Shown here: positions 2,182 through 17,189 of the stretch, piece by piece
Position numbering within the stretch: position 1 is the first letter of the stretch
Layout of the letters: the number at the start of each line of letters is the position of its first letter
Origin: Gammaproteobacteria bacterium
Lineage (GTDB): Bacteria; Pseudomonadota; Gammaproteobacteria; Steroidobacterales; Foliamicaceae
Length of the DNA stretch: 64,000 nucleotides
Assembly: GCA_026707445.1 (NCBI GenBank)
Contig: JAPOWV010000021.1
Location: 22,039 to 86,038, forward strand
Reading direction: 5' to 3'
Made by a program: the position numbers and the translations under genes
Notes under the pieces: generated by a model
The model's database searches: none
What the model saw: the letters and a program-made list of their open reading frames with translations, nothing else
Told to the model about the DNA's origin: nothing

Positions 2182-3015
2182 TCAATCGGCTAAAGGGAGA
2201 TTCTTGAACGCTTCGACCTGGCCGGAGATGGCCCGCTCGGTCGGCAGCCTTTCAATGCTGGAAGCGCCGAAGAACCCATTGATTCCGGGGAGCATTCGCA
2301 GGGCGGCGCCGACGGCGTCAGGCTCGTCCAGCGGTCCCCCGTGAGCGATCACGATGACGTCTTCGCGCGCGCTTCGGCCGGCTTCCGCGATTTCCATCAC
2401 TTTGCGGACGGAATCTTCCAGCGTACTCGCCACAGTGGCGCCGATGCTTCCCGCCGTCGTGAGCCCGAGATGGGCGACCAGTTGGTCTGCGCCCGCTTCG
2501 GTCATCGACCGGGCTTCATCGGCATTGAAAACGTACGGCGAAGTGAACAGGTCCAGGTCATGGGCCTGCGAGATCATTTCCACTTCCTTGTCATAGCCCA
2601 TTCCGGTGCCTTCCAGGTTGGCCCGGAAGTTGCCGTCTATCAGCCCCACCGTGGGGAAGTTCTGAACGCCGGAAAACCCCATGTCCTTGAGCTGGCGCAG
2701 GAACAGCGGCATGTTCCTGAACGGGTCCGTGCCGCAGACGCCGGCCAGCACGGGCGTGTCCCGCACCACGGTAAGCACTTCGGCAGCCATTTCGACCACG
2801 ATGGCGTTGGCGTCCCCATACGGCATCAGGCCCGCCAGCGAACCCCGGCCGGCCATGCGGTAGCGCCCGGAGTTGTAGATGATGATCAGATCGGCGCCGC
2901 CGGCCTCCGCAAACTTTGCCGAGATTCCCGTTCCGGCGCCGCAGCCGACAATCGGCCTGCCGGCGCTGATCTGCCCTTGCAGCCTTGCGACAATTTCTTT
3001 TCGCGCAATCGACAT
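2182..3015 (-). CDS. PEP-hydrolase-like 'TIM-barrel signal transduction' protein (Tm-1 C-terminal-like, PF09370 type)
   Basis: Family signature [70 protein letters not shown]; GGAGG RBS. Confidence 0.9.
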
Positions 3016-3038
3016 ATGCAATCCTCCTTCGCCGCCGC

Positions 3039-4748
3039 CTACAGAAACAGGTCGACGATTTCCGCATCCGGATTGTTACGGACCCCGCTGACATCGTCGA
3101 AAATCATGGTGGGTCTGGTAGCGGCGCCGTACTGTGGCCAATCTGGCAATCCCGGAGCATTCGGGTCGCCCCCCGCAGCGAACTGCGACCAGTAACGGGT
3201 CATCAACTCGGACAGTGAGCGTGGCCGCTCGCCGCCGCCGGTCTGTTCCGCAACCATCTCCGTGTTGGCGAACACGAAGGCGATATCGCTGGTGTGGTAG
3301 GCGCGCGGGCGCCCGTCGAACAGGTCGGTGCGCCAGTCGAACAGGTAGTTGAATACCCTGCGGTTCCGTGCGGCGCTGGCGCGGTTGCAGTACTCGACGG
3401 CGGACAGCCGGAACCTGCGGGTCAAAAGCACCGACAGCACATCGACCGGTCGCCATTCGGCATCGGTCTTTCGCGCCGCCTCGATGGCGGCATCCGTCCG
3501 GCCGTGCAGTTCCGGTTCCAGCTCTTCCTTCAGTCCCGACCAGGACAACTCCTCAAGATGCGGATTGTTTCCGCTGGGCGAGATTTCGTTGCGCGTGCTG
3601 CCGCAGATGAGCGGAATGTCGGCGGAGTTGGACATGGCCGCGGTCGAGCCGGGCTGGTAAGGAAGAAACGGCGTCTCCGCGGTGGGCTGGTACCGCCAGG
3701 ATCGTCCCGCCCAGCGGGACGTCTCGATACCTTGCACCCTGACCGCGTCGCTTGCCGCCTTCGCGGCCCGCAGGAATTCTGCGACCGGCAATTCCCGAAG
3801 CCTGCGCACCGATCCCGCGCTCGGTGGCAGATCGAGGACACGCCGAATTTCCCGGGTGAGCCTGGATGCGGTCTCCTGGTCGTGCACCTCAAGGCGTGCG
3901 CCGCTCTGAATGACCGCCCGGTGAAACAATCCGGACGCCTCGGGCATGGCAAGCAGGACGCTGATCTTGTAACCGCCTCCGGACTGGCCGAAGAGGGTGA
4001 TGTTGTCGGCGTCACCGCCAAAACTCTCGATGTTGGCGCGCAGCCATTTCAGCGCGTCAACCAGGTCCAGGACTCCGGCGGCCGGCGACTCGGAGAACGA
4101 TTCACCCATATCGGTATAGAAATCCGTGTATCCCAGCGCGTCGATGCGGTGATTGAGGCTCACCACCACCACGTTCCTGCGCCTGGCGAGGTTTTCCCCG
4201 TCGCAACTCAGGAATTCCTGGCTGCTGCCTCTGCGAAAGCCCCCGGGGTGCAGCCACACCATCACGTTTTTTTTGGTTTCGCAGGCGACCGGGGCCCAGA
4301 TGTTCAGGCGCAAGCAGTCTTCCATCGCATCGCTCGGCTGACCGTTCGGCGCGAGAAACCGGAACACGTCGTGGGCGCGGTCGCGGCTTTCCTCCGGGAT
4401 CACGGGGCATACCGGGCCGTAGTTCAACGCCCTGCGGACCCCGGTCCAGGGGGTCACGGCAGGCGCTCGGGCGAAACGGAAAGCGCCCACCGGCGGGTCC
4501 GCATAGGGCACGCCCTTGTAGATGGCCACGCCGCCGCGCTCGTATCCCTGGAGCTTTCCGGCGGTCGTCTCGACCGCGGCGGAATTGGTGAGGAGCTGCC
4601 CGCCGGCGCAATTCGGTGGATCGACGGCGGTGTCGGCGCCACCTGGAGCGGCCGTCGCGGCCAGCGGCGCCGCGGCGACGGCCGCGACGACTTCCCGGCG
4701 ACTGAAACCTGCGCCTGTGCTTTTCTGATGAGCCTGCTTGGGGGGCAT
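3039..4748 (-). CDS. Type-B carboxylesterase/lipase with Tat signal
   Basis: FSRREVVAA twin-Arg leader; [16 protein letters not shown], nucleophile elbow [18 protein letters not shown]. Confidence 0.9.
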
Positions 4749-4760
4749 CGCGATGGGGGG

Positions 4761-6197
4761 TCAATAGGGAACGCGCATCGGCGCGTCCGGGCGCTTTTCG
4801 AGAGGATCGAAGAGGCGGACATTGCGTCCCAGGCGGTCGTAATCGCCCATGTCCGCGCGAACGGACTCGACGAAACCGAGCAGGTTGGCCACGATGTCCG
4901 GATGCTCCCGGGACAGGTCGTAGCGTTCGCCGAAGTCGCTCCTGAGATCAAAAAGCATGGGACTTTCGATCGCCGCCGCGTCTTCGGGGTCTACATGATC
5001 CGACGGCGTCAGCGGCGCCACCCAATCGGGGTCCCGGGGGCGCGGAAGATGGAGCTTCCACCTGCCCCGCCGCACGGCCTGGAGATGGGTCCAAAGGAAG
5101 TAGGCAAAGTCATTGCGCGGGCTGCGCTCGGAATCACCGTTGATGAATCCGCTGCTGTCCAGCCCGTCAATGACCCGGTCCGAGGGAATCGCCGCGTTCG
5201 CCAACGCGGCGAAAGTGGGGAAGAAATCCTGCAGCCCCATGATCTCGGGACTGGTTCGACCGGGTGCGATCCTGCCGGGGGCCCAGATTACGCAGGGTAC
5301 GCGGAACCCTCCTTCCCAGGCGGACGCCTTGCCGCTGCGGAATGGGCCCGCCGAACCGCCGTCTTCGCGCTTGACGATCCAGGGGCCATTGTCGCTGGTA
5401 AACACGACGTAGGTGTTGTTCGCCAGGCCAAGCCGCGCGACCTCGTCGACGATCCGGCCGACATGGAAATCCAGTTCCTCGATGGTGTCGCCGTAGAGTC
5501 CGCGGGGCGATCCTCCGCGAAATTCTGCGGATGCATCCAGCGCGACATGGGGCATGTTGGGGCAGAAGTACACGAAGAACGGCTTGTCCGCGCTACTCCT
5601 GATGAATTCGATGGTTTCGTCGGCATAACGCTTCGGCAGCGCCGCCTGATCGGGCGCCTTTTCGATCATCCGTCCGTCGCGCAGCAGGACGATATCCTCG
5701 GGCCAGTCGTTGCTCGCGGGCGTGCCGAAGTGAACGTCGAATCCCTGCGACGGCGGCAGAAGTTCGGTTTTCCAGCGGTTGTTCGAGTGGCCGCCCAGCC
5801 CCCATTTGCCGATCATTGCGCTGGTATACCCGGCCGGCCGCAGGACCTCGGCAAGCGTGATCTCACGGTCGTGAAGCACCGTGTGGCGGCTCTTCGTATT
5901 GCCGGGTTCGGCCACGCGTATCGGGTAGCAGCCGGTCATCATCGCCGCGCGCGCGGGGCCGCAGAACGGCTCCGCATACATGCAGGTCAGCTTCAGCCCC
6001 TCGGCGGCGAGTGCGTCTATGCGGGGCGTTCGGATGTTCGGCGAGCCGAACGTGCCGACATCGCCGTAACCCAGGTCGTCGGCGAGTATGAGGACGATAT
6101 TCGGCGGCGGTCCGGACCATGCGCGAGGCGCCGCCAGGGCCGGAAGCGCAGCGCCGATTCCTGCCTTCAGCATTGTGCGCCGGGTAATCATGGGCAA
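4761..6197 (-). CDS. Formylglycine-dependent (S1) sulfatase with Tat signal
   Basis: PNIVLILADDLGYGD, CGPARAAMMTG (CxPxR), GKWGLG, FTSDNG, GKASAWEGGFRVP; ITRRTMLK leader. Start TTG 6197 or ATG 6191. Confidence 0.93.
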   Translation of the reverse strand: MPMITRRTMLKAGIGAALPALAAPRAWSGPPPNIVLILADDLGYGDVGTFGSPNIRTPRIDALAAEGLKLTCMYAEPFCGPARAAMMTGCYPIRVAEPGNTKSRHTVLHDREITLAEVLRPAGYTSAMIGKWGLGGHSNNRWKTELLPPSQGFDVHFGTPASNDWPEDIVLLRDGRMIEKAPDQAALPKRYADETIEFIRSSADKPFFVYFCPNMPHVALDASAEFRGGSPRGLYGDTIEELDFHVGRIVDEVARLGLANNTYVVFTSDNGPWIVKREDGGSAGPFRSGKASAWEGGFRVPCVIWAPGRIAPGRTSPEIMGLQDFFPTFAALANAAIPSDRVIDGLDSSGFINGDSERSPRNDFAYFLWTHLQAVRRGRWKLHLPRPRDPDWVAPLTPSDHVDPEDAAAIESPMLFDLRSDFGERYDLSREHPDIVANLLGFVESVRADMGDYDRLGRNVRLFDPLEKRPDAPMRVPY

Positions 6198-6277
6198 CCG
6201 CGGGTCCTCGAACCGATCAGCACAATTGCGCTAAACCTGCACTACTCTAATAAGTTTGGGAGGCGCCGACAAGCGCG
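6136..6277. repeat. Direct repeat copy 1 (upstream region + RBS + Tat signal-coding segment)
   Basis: Ungapped alignment with 8975-9116 at offset 2839; I count about 11 mismatches in 142 bp. Confidence 0.95.
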
Positions 6278-9036
6278 GACGACTGGATGCGCAATTCCAG
6301 GGCATCGCCGGCCGACAATCGAATGGGCATGTCGAAGCGCACCAGGCAATCCTGGCCATTGCTGCTTACCGTTGCATGGCCCATTGATGTGACTACGCTA
6401 GCGGCAGTCTCATTGGAACGTGTGCGCAGCGCCATGGTTCGCAGCTTGAGCGCGCCGTGGTTGACAGTCAGCTGCACGGCCAGCGCGGCTCCAGCGCGCC
6501 GTTGTTCGAAGCTGCCCCAACCCTCGGGCGCCGTGAACGCCGCCTTGAAATTGCCGTCCTGCGCAAGGCGGGGCTTGAAGCCGATATGCTGCCGGGGGCC
6601 GTCAATCTCGTATCCGCACAAGGCCAGGAATATCCCGTACGCCGACATGGCGCGGGAGTAGTGGTCCGAGCACTCGATCTCGTTGTAGGGATTTCTTGCC
6701 TTTGGCCGATAGCGATCGTGCACGGCCCGCGTTATCGCCAGACCCTTCTCCAGAAGGTCCGGCTGCGCGTCGCTCTCCCAGATCATGTGCCCTGCGAGCT
6801 GGTATTCGAGGCCCTGAAAGCAGGTATTGAAATAAGCGAACTGCCAGTTGTCCTTCCACGTCTCAGGCGGGCCGCCATTGGGCCAGGTGCATGTGAGCAC
6901 GCCCGCATCGCCCACCAGCGCATAGGGGTTGCCGCGGTGACGCGGGTCTTTGATCGAGGCCTGGTAGCGGCCCACGTCCGGGCAGAAGTTATGGTCCCAG
7001 ATGCGGGCCAGGGCCCGGCGAATCATGCCGCCGTCGAAAAGGCGGCCCAGTCGCAACTGAAACGCCCACCACTGGCCGATCACCTGGTCGATATGGCAGC
7101 CATCGCCGAGCCCGATCTCGCCGGGTAGTGAAGGATCTTCCTCCTGGACGAAATAGCCGAATTCGGTGCGAAAAAGAGCGGCGATGCCTCTGCGTCCCTG
7201 ATCGGCGATGGCACGGCACCTGCGGGCGAAATCATCGTCGCCCACGGTTTCGGCCATGCGCTCGCCGGCCGCCAGCGCCGCAACGTACAGCGACGCGAAG
7301 GCCGGCACCTTTCCGTACCAGCTCGCATCCAACGTGTTGGACTGTTGGCCGCCCGGGATTCCGTCCACACGTCCGTCGCGGGCGTCCGTAGCGATCAGGA
7401 ATTCGATCGCTTTTCGCGTCTTCGGCCAGACGCGGTTCAGGAAACCGTCGTCCGCGCTCATCTGGTGCTCGCGCAAGGTGCGCAGGACCACACCGGCTTG
7501 TCCGTCAATGGCGATCGAATCTTCGAATTCGGCGCGCGAACGGACCCCGCCGTCGGCGCGGAAAGCGATGCCGTAATCGGTGCGTTCCCTCAAATCACGC
7601 TCTAGTGAAGGGAACAGCCGGGCGACCGCCTGCGCATAGTGCCAGACATGCGTGCAGGTGCCGGGGCAGCATCCCACGCCCTCCCAGCCCCAGAACCGGC
7701 CGTCCTCGAATCGGATCGAGGTGTTGGTCTGCAACGCGTTGACCGAGTTGAAGCAACGTTCCAGAAGCCAGTGGGGCAGGGTGCTGTCGTACCAGGTATC
7801 CCGCCAGCGCACGGTAGCCTGGCGGAGTTGGAGTTTTTCCTCGGCCAGGCTCCGGGCGGCGTCCGCCGCATTGCCGAAACGGTTCACATACCAGCGCCTG
7901 GCCCTGGCCTGCGGGAAGGCGCGCTGATTGCTGTCCCAGGTCCTGGCCTGAAGACGGAGGTTGGGAAAGTACCAGGCGACGACGAAATCGCAGTCGTGGG
8001 AGTCGCCCGTGGCGAGGTCAAAGCGGCTGGACAGGCCCGCTATTGCCGGAGACCACGGGTGCGACTGATAGGGTTCGGAACCGGAGCGTTGCATGGCGTC
8101 GCGCTGTAGGAACGCATGCGTGGCCGCGCGTGCCTGAGGATCGCTGCAGGCAAGCGCAAAGGACCCGAAGTCCGGGAGGTCCTCGATCGGGGGCTGGTAT
8201 TCCTCGGGGAGTTGGTTGTCCCTCACTGCCTGGCCCAACACGCCGATGCCGTGTTCCAGGCGGAAGACACGGTTTTCCAGCGGAGCGTCATTTCGATGGG
8301 CGTTGTAACGGAGCGCCGGGTTCTCGAACCATCCTTCGATCCGGCCCTCGAGATTTTCGGAGCCGGTATTGCGGATGCGATAGCGAAGCAGGACCGCCGG
8401 CCACGAGGAGTGATCGGCCTCCAGCGGAACAAAGGGCGTCATGGCCTCGAGATCGACCTGGATGCCGGCCTGGCCGGATCGGTAGCGAACATGCGCCGTT
8501 GGGGCGGTACCGGTGAAGGCGATATCGCTGAAACCAGTATGGTCCAGCGGAAATCTTGCCTCCGAGCCGTTCCGGCGGATAACCAGCGCGAATCCCTGTT
8601 CAAATCGCCAGGGGCTGTCTGCCTGTGTCGGAGGTTCGAGGAAATTGGCCCCGTCTCTCTCCCTTAGCCGGCCGCCGCGCAGATTCGTATGCTTGCCCGG
8701 CTTCAGGGTGGAGGGCACCACGCCTTCATGGGCCTGATTGAAAATATCCCAGCACCATAGCTTCCCGTCGCCTCCCAGGTACACCGTGCCGGCGCCGATT
8801 CCGCCGATCGGCATGCCGACGTACCGCTGTTCGTCCCAGGTCCGATAGACTCGCGCCGTTCCCCGTTCGGAAAGGCGGTCAAGCCATTCCCGGCTGAGTT
8901 TCTTGTCCAGCGGCACACTTCGCAGCTCCGCGGGGAAGGGACCTGCGAGTACCGCGGCGGGCCGCGTCGGTGAAAGGGCCGGCAGCGCAGCGCCGATTCC
9001 TGCCTTCAGCATGGTGCGCCGGGTAATCATGGGCAA
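6247..9036 (-). CDS. GH116 family glycoside hydrolase with Tat signal
   Basis: GMPIGGIGAGTVYLGGDG, FWGWEGVGCCPGTCTHVWHYAQ, NTLDASW, NPYNEIECSDHYSRAMS; leader identical to the sulfatase for about 21 aa. Confidence 0.88.
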   Translation of the reverse strand: MPMITRRTMLKAGIGAALPALSPTRPAAVLAGPFPAELRSVPLDKKLSREWLDRLSERGTARVYRTWDEQRYVGMPIGGIGAGTVYLGGDGKLWCWDIFNQAHEGVVPSTLKPGKHTNLRGGRLRERDGANFLEPPTQADSPWRFEQGFALVIRRNGSEARFPLDHTGFSDIAFTGTAPTAHVRYRSGQAGIQVDLEAMTPFVPLEADHSSWPAVLLRYRIRNTGSENLEGRIEGWFENPALRYNAHRNDAPLENRVFRLEHGIGVLGQAVRDNQLPEEYQPPIEDLPDFGSFALACSDPQARAATHAFLQRDAMQRSGSEPYQSHPWSPAIAGLSSRFDLATGDSHDCDFVVAWYFPNLRLQARTWDSNQRAFPQARARRWYVNRFGNAADAARSLAEEKLQLRQATVRWRDTWYDSTLPHWLLERCFNSVNALQTNTSIRFEDGRFWGWEGVGCCPGTCTHVWHYAQAVARLFPSLERDLRERTDYGIAFRADGGVRSRAEFEDSIAIDGQAGVVLRTLREHQMSADDGFLNRVWPKTRKAIEFLIATDARDGRVDGIPGGQQSNTLDASWYGKVPAFASLYVAALAAGERMAETVGDDDFARRCRAIADQGRRGIAALFRTEFGYFVQEEDPSLPGEIGLGDGCHIDQVIGQWWAFQLRLGRLFDGGMIRRALARIWDHNFCPDVGRYQASIKDPRHRGNPYALVGDAGVLTCTWPNGGPPETWKDNWQFAYFNTCFQGLEYQLAGHMIWESDAQPDLLEKGLAITRAVHDRYRPKARNPYNEIECSDHYSRAMSAYGIFLALCGYEIDGPRQHIGFKPRLAQDGNFKAAFTAPEGWGSFEQRRAGAALAVQLTVNHGALKLRTMALRTRSNETAASVVTSMGHATVSSNGQDCLVRFDMPIRLSAGDALELRIQSSALVGASQTY

Positions 9037-9116
9037 CCGCGGGTCCTCGAACCAATCAGCAAAATTGCGCTAAACTTACTTTACTCTAATAAGTTTGGAA
9101 GGCGCGGGCAAGCGCG
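8975..9116. repeat. Direct repeat copy 2 (upstream region + RBS + Tat signal-coding segment)
   Basis: Matches 6136-6277. Confidence 0.95.
9072..9096. promoter_or_regulatory. Palindromic operator candidate AAACTTA-N11-TAAGTTT
   Basis: Perfect 7-bp inverted arms upstream of GH116; same geometry at 37554-37578; degenerate copy at 6233-6257. Confidence 0.55.
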
Positions 9117-9292
9117 ACCGTCCGGACGCGTAATGCCAGCGCGTCTCCGGTCGAAAAATGGAAGGCGGCGGCTCTTCACGGGCATTTCTATAGAATGGCC
9201 CGCACCGGCATCGACCGGGGAACCGGGCCTGCCGTTTCTTTGCCGAGCGCCCGACGGCACCATCGCTACGCAGGATATTCCGGAGATCACTC

Positions 9293-10621
9293 ATGTCCGC
9301 CACAAATCTATCCTTACTGAAGCCGGATTCCGAGAGGAAGAACTGGTTCATTCATGACCGTTTCGGAATGATCATTCATTTCGGTCTCTACTCGCTCCAC
9401 ACGCAAGGCGCCTGGTACCGGAGCCGGCAGGAATTGCCCCACGAGCACATTCTGAAGTACTTTAATCAGTTCAACCCCGACCTCTACGATCCCGGGGACT
9501 GGGCCCGGCGAGCCCGGCGCGCCGGCATGACCCACATGACACTGACCTCCAAGCACCACGACGGCTTTTGCCTCTGGCCGACCAAAGAAACCGATTTCAA
9601 CGTCAGCAACACACCCTACGGCAAGGACCTCATAGGTCCATTTGTCGAAGCCTGCCGCACGGAGGGCCTGAAGGTGGGCCTTTACTACTCCCTGATCGAC
9701 TGGAGCCGCAGGGATTTCGCGATCGACCCCTTTCATCCCCTGCGCAATTCCGAAGACCTTGAATCCTACAACGCGAAATGCGACGTTTCGCGCTACCAGG
9801 CTTTCATGAAGGCCCAGGTAACGGAATTGTTGACTCAGTACGGCGAAATCAGCCACTTTTTCCCGGATTTCAGCTATCCGCGGGCGACGCATCGGGGCGT
9901 TTCCGGCAAGGGACGCGATTACTGGGACAGCGAAGGGCTGCTCGCGCTCGTGCGGGAGCTGCAGCCGAACGCGATAGTGAACAACCGGCTGGATCTGCTG
10001 GATCTTGAAGCCGATTTCTACACGCCCGAGTGTTTCGTGCCTCATGAAGCGCCCCTGCGAAAGGGCCGGCCGGTCGATTTCGAGTCCGCTTTCACCATGT
10101 CCGAGCGATGGAGCTACAACCGCGACGAGGAAAACTGGAAAAGCCCGCATCAACTGATTCGGATTCTGGTCGACATGGTCGCCATGGGCGGCAATTTGAT
10201 GATGAACGTCGGCCCGACGGGACGGGGCATCCTTGACAAACGGACCATGGCGGCGCTTGACGCCTATGCGGACTGGATGGAACTGCACGCGCGTTCCATA
10301 TACGGATGCGGGAAATCCCCGTTCCAGGCGCCGAAGGACTGCCGGCTGACGCAGAACGGCAATCGGGTATATGTGCATCTGTTCAGCTGGCCCTACAAGC
10401 ACCTTTACCTGGAAGGTCTGGGAGGCAAGGTCGCCTATGCGCAGCTGCTTAACGACGCCAGCGAAATCAGCTGGCTGCCGCCCGGCAGGCGCGTGCTCGG
10501 AGAAGGCGAGGGGCTGCAGGGCCTGGACCAGGACGACTTGCCGCACGACATTCTTGTCCTCCAGCTTCCACCCGCGAAACCGCCCGTGGAAGTGCCGGTC
10601 ATCGAACTCGTTCTGAAGTAG
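9293..10621 (+). CDS. Alpha-L-fucosidase, GH29
   Basis: WF..DRFGMIIHFGLYS, FNPDLYDP..WA, TSKHHDGFCLW, GLYYSLIDW, NNRL, GGNLMMNVGP; no signal peptide. Confidence 0.92.
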   Translation: MSATNLSLLKPDSERKNWFIHDRFGMIIHFGLYSLHTQGAWYRSRQELPHEHILKYFNQFNPDLYDPGDWARRARRAGMTHMTLTSKHHDGFCLWPTKETDFNVSNTPYGKDLIGPFVEACRTEGLKVGLYYSLIDWSRRDFAIDPFHPLRNSEDLESYNAKCDVSRYQAFMKAQVTELLTQYGEISHFFPDFSYPRATHRGVSGKGRDYWDSEGLLALVRELQPNAIVNNRLDLLDLEADFYTPECFVPHEAPLRKGRPVDFESAFTMSERWSYNRDEENWKSPHQLIRILVDMVAMGGNLMMNVGPTGRGILDKRTMAALDAYADWMELHARSIYGCGKSPFQAPKDCRLTQNGNRVYVHLFSWPYKHLYLEGLGGKVAYAQLLNDASEISWLPPGRRVLGEGEGLQGLDQDDLPHDILVLQLPPAKPPVEVPVIELVLK

Positions 10622-15596: not shown

Positions 15597-16376
15597 ATGG
15601 CGGGCCAATACTCCACTGATCTTTTCAGGCTCGATGACCGGGTGGCGCTGGTGACCGGCGCAGCCAGCGGCATGGGCCTGCGCGCCGCCTACGGGCTTGC
15701 CGACGCCGGCGCCCAGGTCGTGGCCGCGGACGTGAATTCCGGCGGCCTGGACGAGGCCGTGGCCGCAATGCGGGCCGAGGGTTACCGCGTGACCGGCGCA
15801 GTGGCCGACATTTCGGACCAGGAGCAGGTTGCTCAGATGGCGAAAACAGCCGAAAGCGTGTCCGGCCACGTGGATGTGCTCGTCAATTGCGCCGGTATAG
15901 GCGCACGCGGCGTGGCCAGGGACTATCCGCTGGAACTGTGGCGGAAGGTCATACACATCAATACGCGCGGCAGCTTTCTGTGCGCCAGGGCGGTGGCGCC
16001 CGGGATGATTGCGCGGAGAAAGGGTTCGATCATCAATATCGCTTCCTGCGCCGCTGCCGTCGGATGGCCGGGCAGCGTGGGTTACCAGGTCAGCAAGGCG
16101 GGACTGGGTCAGATGTCCCGCAGCCTGGGGGTCGAGTGGGCGCCGTACAACGTGCGGGTCAATTCGATTGCACCCGGTTCCGTCGATACGCCGCAGAACC
16201 AGCAGGAAGAAGCTCGGGAGCCGGAGTATTTCGCGGAACGCCTGCGGCGAGTGCCCATGGGACGCAGGGCGCAGCCGGAGGAGGTCGTGGGCGCGATACT
16301 CTTTCTTGCCTCGGACGCCAGCAGCATGGTGACGGGCAACCTGATCGCGACGGATGGCGGCTACATCGCCAGTTGA
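15597..16376 (+). CDS. SDR family oxidoreductase (paralogue 1)
   Basis: TGAASGMG, NCAG, YQVSK, VRVNSIAPG, DGG. Confidence 0.93.
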   Translation: MAGQYSTDLFRLDDRVALVTGAASGMGLRAAYGLADAGAQVVAADVNSGGLDEAVAAMRAEGYRVTGAVADISDQEQVAQMAKTAESVSGHVDVLVNCAGIGARGVARDYPLELWRKVIHINTRGSFLCARAVAPGMIARRKGSIINIASCAAAVGWPGSVGYQVSKAGLGQMSRSLGVEWAPYNVRVNSIAPGSVDTPQNQQEEAREPEYFAERLRRVPMGRRAQPEEVVGAILFLASDASSMVTGNLIATDGGYIAS

Positions 16377-16409: not shown

Positions 16410-17189
16410 ATGAACGGCAGGTACAGGACGCTTTTCGACTTTGGCGGCAAGACGGTCATCGTGACCGGCGCAGCGAGCGGGCTGGGCAGGGAAATTTCGC
16501 GGGCCCTGGCGGACTTCGGCGCCGATGTGGTCATCGCGGACAAGAACGCCCCCGGCCTGCGCAAGGTTGCGGCGGAACTCGAGCCCGCGGCCGCCAGCGT
16601 TCTGCCCTGTCCCACGGACGTGTCCGTTCCCGAGCAGGTGGATGCCCTGGTGAGCGCCGCGCTGGGCGTGTCGGGGCGCATCGACGCGCTGATTCACTGC
16701 GCGGGTATAGGCGGACGGTCGCCCGCCGTGAGCTATCCGATGGAGCTTTGGGACGAGGTGATCAGCGTGAACGCCGGCGGAACCTTTCTCTGCACCCAGG
16801 CGGTTGGACGGGTGATGCTGGAGCAGGAAAACGGCGGCGCCATCGTCAATCTTTCATCGATCGGGGGTATGGTGGGCAAGCCGGGTAGCGTCGGCTACCA
16901 GGTGAGCAAGGCCATGGAAATTCAGATCGCCAAGAGCCTGGGCGTGGAGTGGGGGCCGCACGGCGTGCGGGTCAATTCCATCGCGCCCGGGCTGTTCATG
17001 ACGGAGACCATTCGGGCCGAGACCGAGAAGGAGCCGGACGTGAACGCGGACTTCATGAAGATGCTGCCCCGGGGACGCGCGGGCGAATTGCACGAGATCG
17101 TGGGCGCGGCGCTGTTTCTCGCTTCGGATGCGGGAAGCTACGTGACTGGAGCGGTGATTCCAGTGGACGGCGGAGCGCTTGCGTGGTAG
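16410..17189 (+). CDS. SDR family oxidoreductase (paralogue 2)
   Basis: TGAASGLG, HCAG, YQVSK, VRVNSIAPG, VDGG. Confidence 0.93.
   Translation: MNGRYRTLFDFGGKTVIVTGAASGLGREISRALADFGADVVIADKNAPGLRKVAAELEPAAASVLPCPTDVSVPEQVDALVSAALGVSGRIDALIHCAGIGGRSPAVSYPMELWDEVISVNAGGTFLCTQAVGRVMLEQENGGAIVNLSSIGGMVGKPGSVGYQVSKAMEIQIAKSLGVEWGPHGVRVNSIAPGLFMTETIRAETEKEPDVNADFMKMLPRGRAGELHEIVGAALFLASDAGSYVTGAVIPVDGGALAW

Follow-up and report, generated by a model that had tools for sequence, protein, structure and literature searches.

Results

Genes and features of the locus

The window, i.e. the whole 64,000-nt stretch of DNA that we analysed, comes from a sponge-associated gammaproteobacterium. It contains an S1-type sulfatase gene and a GH116-family glycoside hydrolase gene, both on the minus strand, with a carboxylesterase gene downstream of the sulfatase, an alpha-L-fucosidase gene pointing away from GH116 and a TonB-dependent receptor beyond the fucosidase (Pfam scan). 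A direct repeat, the copies of which we call A and B, overlaps the starts of the sulfatase and GH116 genes, respectively. The features, by position in the window, are:

4761..6197, minus strand: S1-type sulfatase gene; 478 aa from a TTG start, with an ATG two codons in; Pfam Sulfatase (PF00884, E 3.7e-54) and Sulfatase_C
6136..6197, minus strand: repeat copy A, coding part; codons 1-21 of the sulfatase gene (LPMITRRTMLKAGIGAALPAL), which encode the n- and h-regions of a putative Tat-type signal
6198..6246, minus strand: repeat copy A, 49-nt spacer between GH116 and sulfatase; GAGGA at 6205-6209, 7 nt ahead of the TTG
6247..6318, minus strand: repeat copy A, 3' end of the functional GH116 gene; its final 23 codons (ending SAGDALELRIQSSALVGASQTY) and TAG
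6247..9036, minus strand: GH116-family glycoside hydrolase with a chimeric signal peptide; 929 aa
8975..9036, minus strand: repeat copy B, coding part; sulfatase-derived start, of which 21 codons form the GH116 N-terminus; 2/62 mismatches to copy A, both silent
9037..9085, minus strand: repeat copy B, duplicated 49-nt spacer, the GAGGA ribosome-binding site of which now serves GH116; 6/49 mismatches to copy A
9086..9157, minus strand: repeat copy B, GH116 3'-end relic, non-coding (ending STGDALALRVRTVALARAFQTY, then a stop); 15/69 mismatches to copy A
9293..10621, plus strand: alpha-L-fucosidase gene, divergent from GH116; Pfam Alpha_L_fucos, E 3.7e-71

The sulfatase translation contains CGPAR, which fits the CxPxR formylglycine motif of S1 sulfatases. 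In the GH116 protein we found both Glyco_hydr_116N (PF12215, E 2e-33) and the DUF608/GH116 catalytic region (PF04685, E 7e-25). Since the two enzymes fall into different Pfam families and have no similarity past the repeat, they are unrelated; a search of the organism's own genome with GH116 returned only GH116 itself and sulfatase residues 1-26.

Extent and copy number of the repeat

A repeat finder aligned 6136-6318 with 8975-9157 over 183 nt, with no gaps and 23 mismatches (87% identity) and a start-to-start spacing of 2,839 nt. The initial annotation had reported an ungapped match of 6136-6277 to 8975-9116 with about 11 mismatches in 142 nt, those in the coding part being silent. We counted exactly 11, and the two coding differences are synonymous (Thr ACA/ACC and Leu CTT/CTG), but the repeat does not end at 142 nt: similarity reaches 183 nt, outside which 13 of 20 positions differ on either flank, the level of noise. 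The longest exact runs between the copies are 40 and 29 nt. Only these two copies occur in the organism's own assembly (3.05 Mb in 84 contigs; E 1e-91 and 3e-60) and the next-best match is 18 nt long (E 0.04); a search for further copies ahead of other enzymes, which the same annotation had proposed, thus ended with these two.

That annotation had also named an assembly artefact as a way in which the pattern might be spurious. The chimeric junction at 8975 is, however, present in three other assemblies and is crossed by unitigs from two independent public sequencing runs (8476-9043 in run X1; 8537-9043 in run X3). Unitigs end at 6185-6204 and at 9024-9043, where the two repeat copies have words in common.

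The repeat is a duplicated gene junction

Read in the direction of transcription, the repeat unit consists of the 3' end of an ORF (69 nt plus stop), an intergenic region (49 nt) and the 5' start of a second ORF (62 nt). The 183-nt repeat is therefore a duplicated GH116-to-sulfatase gene junction and not a promoter module, and it follows that what the upstream copy retains of GH116 is a dead piece of its 3' end. What had been described as about 80 bp of shared upstream DNA is, in the sulfatase copy, the 49-nt spacer together with the end of the GH116 coding sequence, stop codon included. The relic of that coding end in the upstream copy, the feature that explains the origin of the repeat, had been overlooked. 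It lies at 9086-9157 in the divergent intergenic region, with in-frame stops just upstream. An AGDxL motif near the GH116 C-terminus is common to distant homologues; as this is a feature of the GH116 family, the relic can be traced to a GH116 gene. An ORF that runs across the relic (9076-9351, minus strand, 91 aa) is probably no gene, its third-position G+C being 0.63 against 0.76-0.79 locally.

The shared block had been called a promoter. Its non-coding part, which separates two genes of the same orientation, is a 49-nt spacer that includes a Shine-Dalgarno-like GAGGA, and we found no promoter-like site in it; a scan of 4500-9700 for the sigma-70 consensus gave 0 sites against 0.9 expected in shuffled sequences, a comparison that is uninformative at 63% G+C. 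The block would be more simply read as an operon-internal spacer that was copied along with the junction. In an RNA-labelled run (X20), one contig spans 6185-6335, which is no proof of co-transcription, and 8715-9400 is without cover.

Two further elements were considered and rejected. A dispersed operator in the spacer was dismissed, as a 20-nt spacer motif, allowing up to 4 mismatches, occurs in the genome only at the two repeat copies and at no third place. An AAACTT/AAGTTT inverted repeat around the GH116 stop was not accepted as a structure: its six pairs are kept in 5/5 sequences and none covaries, with folding z-scores of 0.2, -0.4 and 0.4 here and -3.0 in Marinicaulis.

A 7-nt microhomology, CGGCCCT, marks the fusion point; it occupies 8975-8981 and recurs at 6136-6142. 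Where the GH116 of the window turns from sulfatase-like to GH116-like, these seven letters are common to both parental sequences.

The ancestral arrangement in an outgroup

Outside the genus the nearest GH116 is in two Marinicaulis MAGs (56% aa identity), where it is directly followed by an orthologous sulfatase (69% aa). The syntenic run there reads fucosidase, GH116, sulfatase, carboxylesterase, PEP-hydrolase-like, ThuA-like; the fucosidase is upstream of GH116 and co-oriented with it, rather than divergent as in the window. Self-comparison of the Marinicaulis locus revealed no repeat, and blocks of the spacer are conserved between copy A of the window and Marinicaulis.

The Marinicaulis sulfatase has the N-terminus MISRREILKTGAAG, i.e. 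it starts MISRREILKTG, from which we take the MITRR..LKAG signal to be native to the sulfatase. The Marinicaulis GH116 has an RR signal of its own, separate from that of the sulfatase. More generally, 67 of the 78 GH116 homologues from loci with a readable N-terminus carry an RR-x-hydrophobic motif ahead of the mature start, and in 35 of the 78 a Cys pair is found within the 35 residues before that motif. Homologues with the Cys-pair n-region are spread over several phyla; we know of no description of a Cys pair ahead of the twin arginines in the n-region of GH116 enzymes.

These observations bear on the suggestion that GH116 is a mobile cassette between direct repeats, which could be excised, amplified or inserted beside the sulfatase. 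The exact runs of 40 and 29 nt within the direct repeats would suit such an element, as would the fact that recombination between the repeats would leave an intact sulfatase. Yet Marinicaulis has the two genes side by side without repeats, so the adjacency is ancestral; the repeat includes GH116's own coding end; and no recombinase or transposase domain was found with Pfam in the nine ORFs between 33 and 13504. Neither is there any trace of the excision or amplification that the initial annotation envisaged: none of the five genomes that bear the locus has a deletion form, and among the contigs of four public runs (X1, X2, X3 and X20, from 24 runs), which are blind to rare molecules, there is no deletion, circle or joint junction. 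We consider a mobile cassette highly improbable.

A probable intermediate state within the genus

Five of the 61 genomes searched have GH116, the organism's own being one; the others are 4 of the 21 further members of the genus, and 0 of 40 genomes from other families of the order have it. The same four genus genomes have an orthologous sulfatase (96-99% aa), the remaining sulfatase matches in the genomes searched being at most 43% identical, and all four have both copies of the repeat. No genome searched has the sulfatase without GH116, a fifth match (G014) set aside: it is a sulfatase fragment at a contig end that covers window positions 3002-5293 only and is uninformative on GH116 loss.

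Three of the four (G016, G006 and G013; GH116 96% aa identical) have the same structure as the window, with the full sulfatase signal on GH116. The fourth, G005, is a one-contig genome whose GH116 is 89% identical, and its copy B matches repeat positions 17-142 only (numbered from the GH116 tail towards the signal), through MITRR, i.e. sulfatase codon 7. Forty-five unrelated nucleotides follow, which close a 20-codon mini-ORF and carry GGAG. GH116 then opens with ATG and a different signal, MSREPGDCCSSRRTRRSVLQDAGRALAAL, which joins the same mature start, SLTRSAAVLAGP, as in the window. The G005 signal has both RR and the Cys pair and aligns with the family consensus; the window protein is without the Cys-pair region.

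Three lines of evidence, the MISRREILKTG start of the outgroup sulfatase, the different signal of GH116 homologues and the native signal in G005, give the direction of transfer: by sequence comparison, the signal moved from sulfatase to GH116. The nature of the repeat as a junction, the relic and the three states of the locus are likewise shown. The initial annotation was thus right that one enzyme had gained its start region and export signal by local duplication or conversion; the recipient is GH116 and the donor the sulfatase. The comparison of homologous N-termini that it proposed gave this answer, the sulfatase signal being native to the sulfatase while the relatives of GH116 have different signals of their own. 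The polarity of events would follow by parsimony from one outgroup and one intermediate species.

Among positions 17-142, eight sites split copy A from copy B in both the window genome and G005, and at one (position 120) the copies pair by species. The junction duplication is therefore older than the split between these two lineages, and the copies have not been homogenised since. The same sites count against the idea that the repeat is a shared regulatory and export cassette of the kind seen in the upstream-homology-box (UHB) genes of Borrelia, its copies held similar by gene conversion or selection that is still at work, so that the similarity reflects current function: 8/9 informative sites group by copy and not by species. 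Such a cassette would fit with position 120, with the stretch between the ribosome-binding site and codon 7 (positions 105-142), where neither lineage has a fixed difference between copies A and B, and with the spacer blocks that are conserved even with Marinicaulis. It fits poorly with the presence of just two copies in the genome, with the one third of the repeat that is a neutrally decaying coding relic, and with G005, according to which the signal part was not originally shared. We regard it as unlikely.

In the relic tail, 11 of 64 positions differ between the window and G005 (17%), the same as at the four-fold sites of the two genes, which indicates evolution at the rate expected of unconstrained DNA. 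For GH116, the four species that share the chimeric start give dN/dS values of 0.15-0.30, a range that indicates continued purifying selection on the enzyme after the signal swap.

Divergence between copies A and B is uneven along the repeat, with 15/69 mismatches in the tail, 6/49 in the spacer, 0/21 from the start to MITRR and 2/41 in the remaining signal. Positions 1-104 have 21/104 mismatches and positions 105-183 have 2/79 (p = 2e-4, with a boundary picked post hoc). In the pre-defined contrast, the swapped 41 nt (positions 143-183) have 2/41 against 21/142 elsewhere (p = 0.11); with copy A of G005 as a proxy, the values are 1/41 and 20/141 (p = 0.049). A lower divergence, and so a younger age, of the swapped tract is suggested at a marginal level. 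As the divergence tests are marginal, a second, later event rests mainly on the structure of G005.

Searches for other intermediates did not extend this series. Metagenome contigs held no relative closer than 58% (partial) and no further intermediates. In a set of 5.8 billion proteins, GH116 residues 1-60 matched two clusters, both with the chimeric start; the same set yielded no unrelated protein of 510-1626 aa, the size range covered, with the signal of the chimeric start, a search in which a 21-residue match could not reach significance.

The exchanged signal peptide

The Tat consensus is S/T-R-R-x-F-L-K, and the shared signal reads T-R-R-T-M-L-K. Against Pfam TAT_signal, it scored 17.7 bits on the sulfatase and 16.8 bits on GH116, below the cut-off of 22.7; TIGR01409 did not match the shared signal and no HMM matched the GH116 signal of G005. 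The signal of the Marinicaulis sulfatase passes Pfam TAT_signal (25.3 bits), and TatC (PF00902, 226 bits) is encoded in the organism's own genome. A Tat label for the shared signal is plausible, although it falls below the Pfam threshold.

In GH116 the hydrophobic stretch AGIGAALPAL is followed by a candidate cleavage site, placed by eye, at ..AAVLA|GP, and a VMAGP/VLAGP block is conserved in GH116 homologues. As predicted here, the GH116 signal is a hybrid that combines the n- and h-regions of the sulfatase with its own c-region (..TRPAAVLA|GP), which includes the likely cleavage site. The swap had been put forward as a general way to make new secreted enzymes. Because most GH116 relatives (the 67 of 78 above) already have an RR-type signal, one Tat-type signal would have replaced another and no newly secreted enzyme would have arisen.

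The supposed generality was also not borne out within the genome, which has no third copy of the repeat. A crude genome-wide self-comparison, a weak filter made without gene calls, flagged 67 repeat pairs that overlap the starts of open frames, among which the GH116/sulfatase pair is the only one with the same signal-like peptide on two unrelated proteins. Each of the others is explained by a short dispersed repeat beneath an arbitrary frame or by paralogues with similar N-termini.

A proposed history of the locus

We think it likely that a tandem duplication spanned the gene junction, that the upstream gene copy was then lost and that the GH116 signal was subsequently replaced from a template. 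The starting state, as represented by the outgroup, would have been fucosidase, GH116, sulfatase and esterase, with a Tat-type signal on each enzyme and no repeat. In a first step, a tandem duplication would have begun ~45 nt before the GH116 start and ended at sulfatase codon 7, after which the upstream GH116 copy would have been deleted save for its last ~70-85 nt. The product, 'GH116 tail, spacer, MITRR' ahead of the surviving GH116, would be the state kept in G005. Tandem duplication is common in this genome, as seen from its many tandem paralogue pairs.

In a second step, in the ancestor of the window organism and its three close species, the downstream junction would have served as the template by which ~131 nt were replaced by 41 nt of sulfatase signal. 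The stretch lost would have contained the rest of the mini-ORF along with GH116's own ribosome-binding site and n/h-region. The exchange may have been anchored by 126 nt of homology on the left and by the CGGCCCT microhomology on the right, and could have proceeded by gene conversion or by a second (microhomology-mediated) duplication followed by homologous deletion. As a result, GH116 would be translated from the ribosome-binding site and start of the sulfatase.

None of the genomes or metagenome contigs searched has the full tandem intermediate with two copies, so that duplication followed by deletion is indistinguishable from a one-step copying of the junction. In the latter case, a replication template switch would have inserted a junction fragment duplicatively, there would never have been a second full GH116, and G005 would represent a separate event. 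The missing two-copy intermediate and the microhomology at the fusion point would both be expected of such an insertion. Nevertheless, G005 and the other four share eight copy-specific substitutions (positions 17-142), so that two independent insertions at the same site would be needed. Insertion in one step also gives the relic tail no role, whereas partial deletion of a tandem copy would leave just such a tail. We find a one-step insertion rather improbable and prefer tandem duplication, loss of the upstream copy and templated replacement.

Discussion

The closest description that we found is that of the lpl clusters of Staphylococcus aureus, tandem paralogue arrays in which the unit of evolution spans a gene junction and is not a gene (Tsuru and Kobayashi 2008, PMC2568036). 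As outlined there, that unit likewise comprises the 3' end of an ORF, an intergenic region and the 5' start of an ORF; the lpl genes differ in being many-copy tandem paralogues, among which recombination takes place in a conserved central region. Here, unlike in lpl, there are two unrelated genes and two copies, and one of the 3'-ORF parts is a dead relic; the genes are not paralogues.

Similarly, in the UHB family of Borrelia burgdorferi (ospE/ospF/elp), different proteins have acquired a near-identical upstream region and leader through recombination (PMC7002432). The common point is that different proteins share an upstream region and a leader; the UHB genes, in the outline given by that source, are multi-copy and plasmid-borne, with shared promoters and lipoprotein leaders. 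The case described here, by contrast, is a single chromosomal pair with no demonstrated promoter and a putative Tat-type signal, and its informative sites speak against ongoing homogenisation. In the terminal reassortment of type III and IV effectors, the N-terminal secretion signal of one gene is fused to the body of another (Stavrinides et al. 2006, described in PMC5675462). As summarised in the latter source, the chimeric gene is alike in joining one gene's N-terminal signal to the other's body. Unlike in terminal reassortment, the signal at our locus was replaced by one for the same general export route, on a housekeeping glycan-degrading enzyme, and no new cargo was recruited.

A literature search on signal-peptide swaps by duplication with Tat and on GH116 with twin arginines, which covered articles without their supplements, gave no description of this case. 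To us the GH116 signal swap is a clear, well-documented instance of a type of event already known, and not a new mechanism.

It is doubtful that the replacement was adaptive, i.e. that the native Cys-pair n-region and the mini-ORF were discarded and the ribosome-binding site, start and n-/h-region of the sulfatase adopted because of an advantage. If it was, two consecutive enzymes of a sulfated-glycan pathway would have come under identical translation-initiation and export signals, and the Cys-pair n-region, given up in this lineage, would be an element for control or maturation in GH116 export.

Since GH116 relatives already carry such signals, there is no evidence here that cytoplasmic enzymes become secreted in this way. 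What the locus does provide is an unusually complete natural record of the replacement of a bacterial signal peptide, in which the ancestor-like state, the intermediate and the chimera are all present in living genomes and the breakpoints are marked by a decaying gene-end relic and a 7-nt microhomology. It illustrates that bacterial duplications often span gene junctions rather than whole genes, and suggests that the n- and h-regions of Tat-type signals may be interchangeable between unrelated enzymes in nature.

The 5′ flank and an allele patch of the GH116 gene

In the genus of the window, the fucosidase gene (window 9293-10621) is divergent from GH116. At the locus of the Marinicaulis outgroup, the fucosidase (L051 4504-5781) lies upstream of GH116 and is co-oriented with it, and therefore the 5′ flank of GH116 has been rearranged in one of the two lineages. 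The divergent intergenic region includes 123 nt (window 9142-9264) that are present in the window and in three close relatives and are missing from the sister species, G005. An open frame of 91 codons (9076-9351, minus strand) spans these nucleotides and lacks a coding-type G+C bias.

Within GH116, we compared the window with the same three close relatives in bins of 150 nt. Two adjoining bins (7950-8250) differ from each relative at 26-29 of the 150 positions, with just 0-9 differences in the neighbouring bins. The patch looks like an imported (recombinant) stretch. Around 8197-8227, the other allele was present in contigs of a public sequencing run (X3).

Inverted and direct repeats

An AAACTT..AAGTTT inverted repeat flanks the GH116 stop codon; it is retained in both copies of the 183-nt repeat (window 6232-6256 and 9071-9095), in G005 and in Marinicaulis (L051 about 8745-8775), where the hairpin at the stop is longer (z = -3.0). 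No covariation was seen in the inverted repeat when the window copies, G005 and Marinicaulis were compared.

Separately, the window carries a second direct repeat of 69 nt, with copies 80% identical and 813 nt apart:

16109-16177, first copy
16922-16990, second copy

These are probably conserved segments of two adjoining paralogous genes. Outside the window, the same genome has numerous tandem paralogue pairs (65-90% identical) and families of short dispersed repeats (about 70-260 nt). Examples in this genome (G000) are:

C43:34620-40493
C2:15277-20308
C55:12462-17055
C34:39597-39860, with its look-alikes

The GH116 N-terminus, and a mini-ORF in G005

A Cys pair, often in a CDPxSGCC-like form, stands in the n-region shortly ahead of the twin arginines of the signal in 35 of 78 GH116 homologues (N-termini of loci L050-L128); these 35 belong to several phyla. 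The window GH116 N-terminus (8975-9036) has no such pair. To our knowledge the Cys pair has not been described, and a literature search on GH116 with twin-arginine signals yielded nothing relevant to it.

In G005, the start retained in the relic of the repeat opens a mini-ORF of 20 codons (LPMITRRGIPMSPTAACRPE; L018 about 8644-8706, minus strand), whose stop lies 3 nt ahead of the GH116 ATG. The mini-ORF might influence translation of GH116 in this species.
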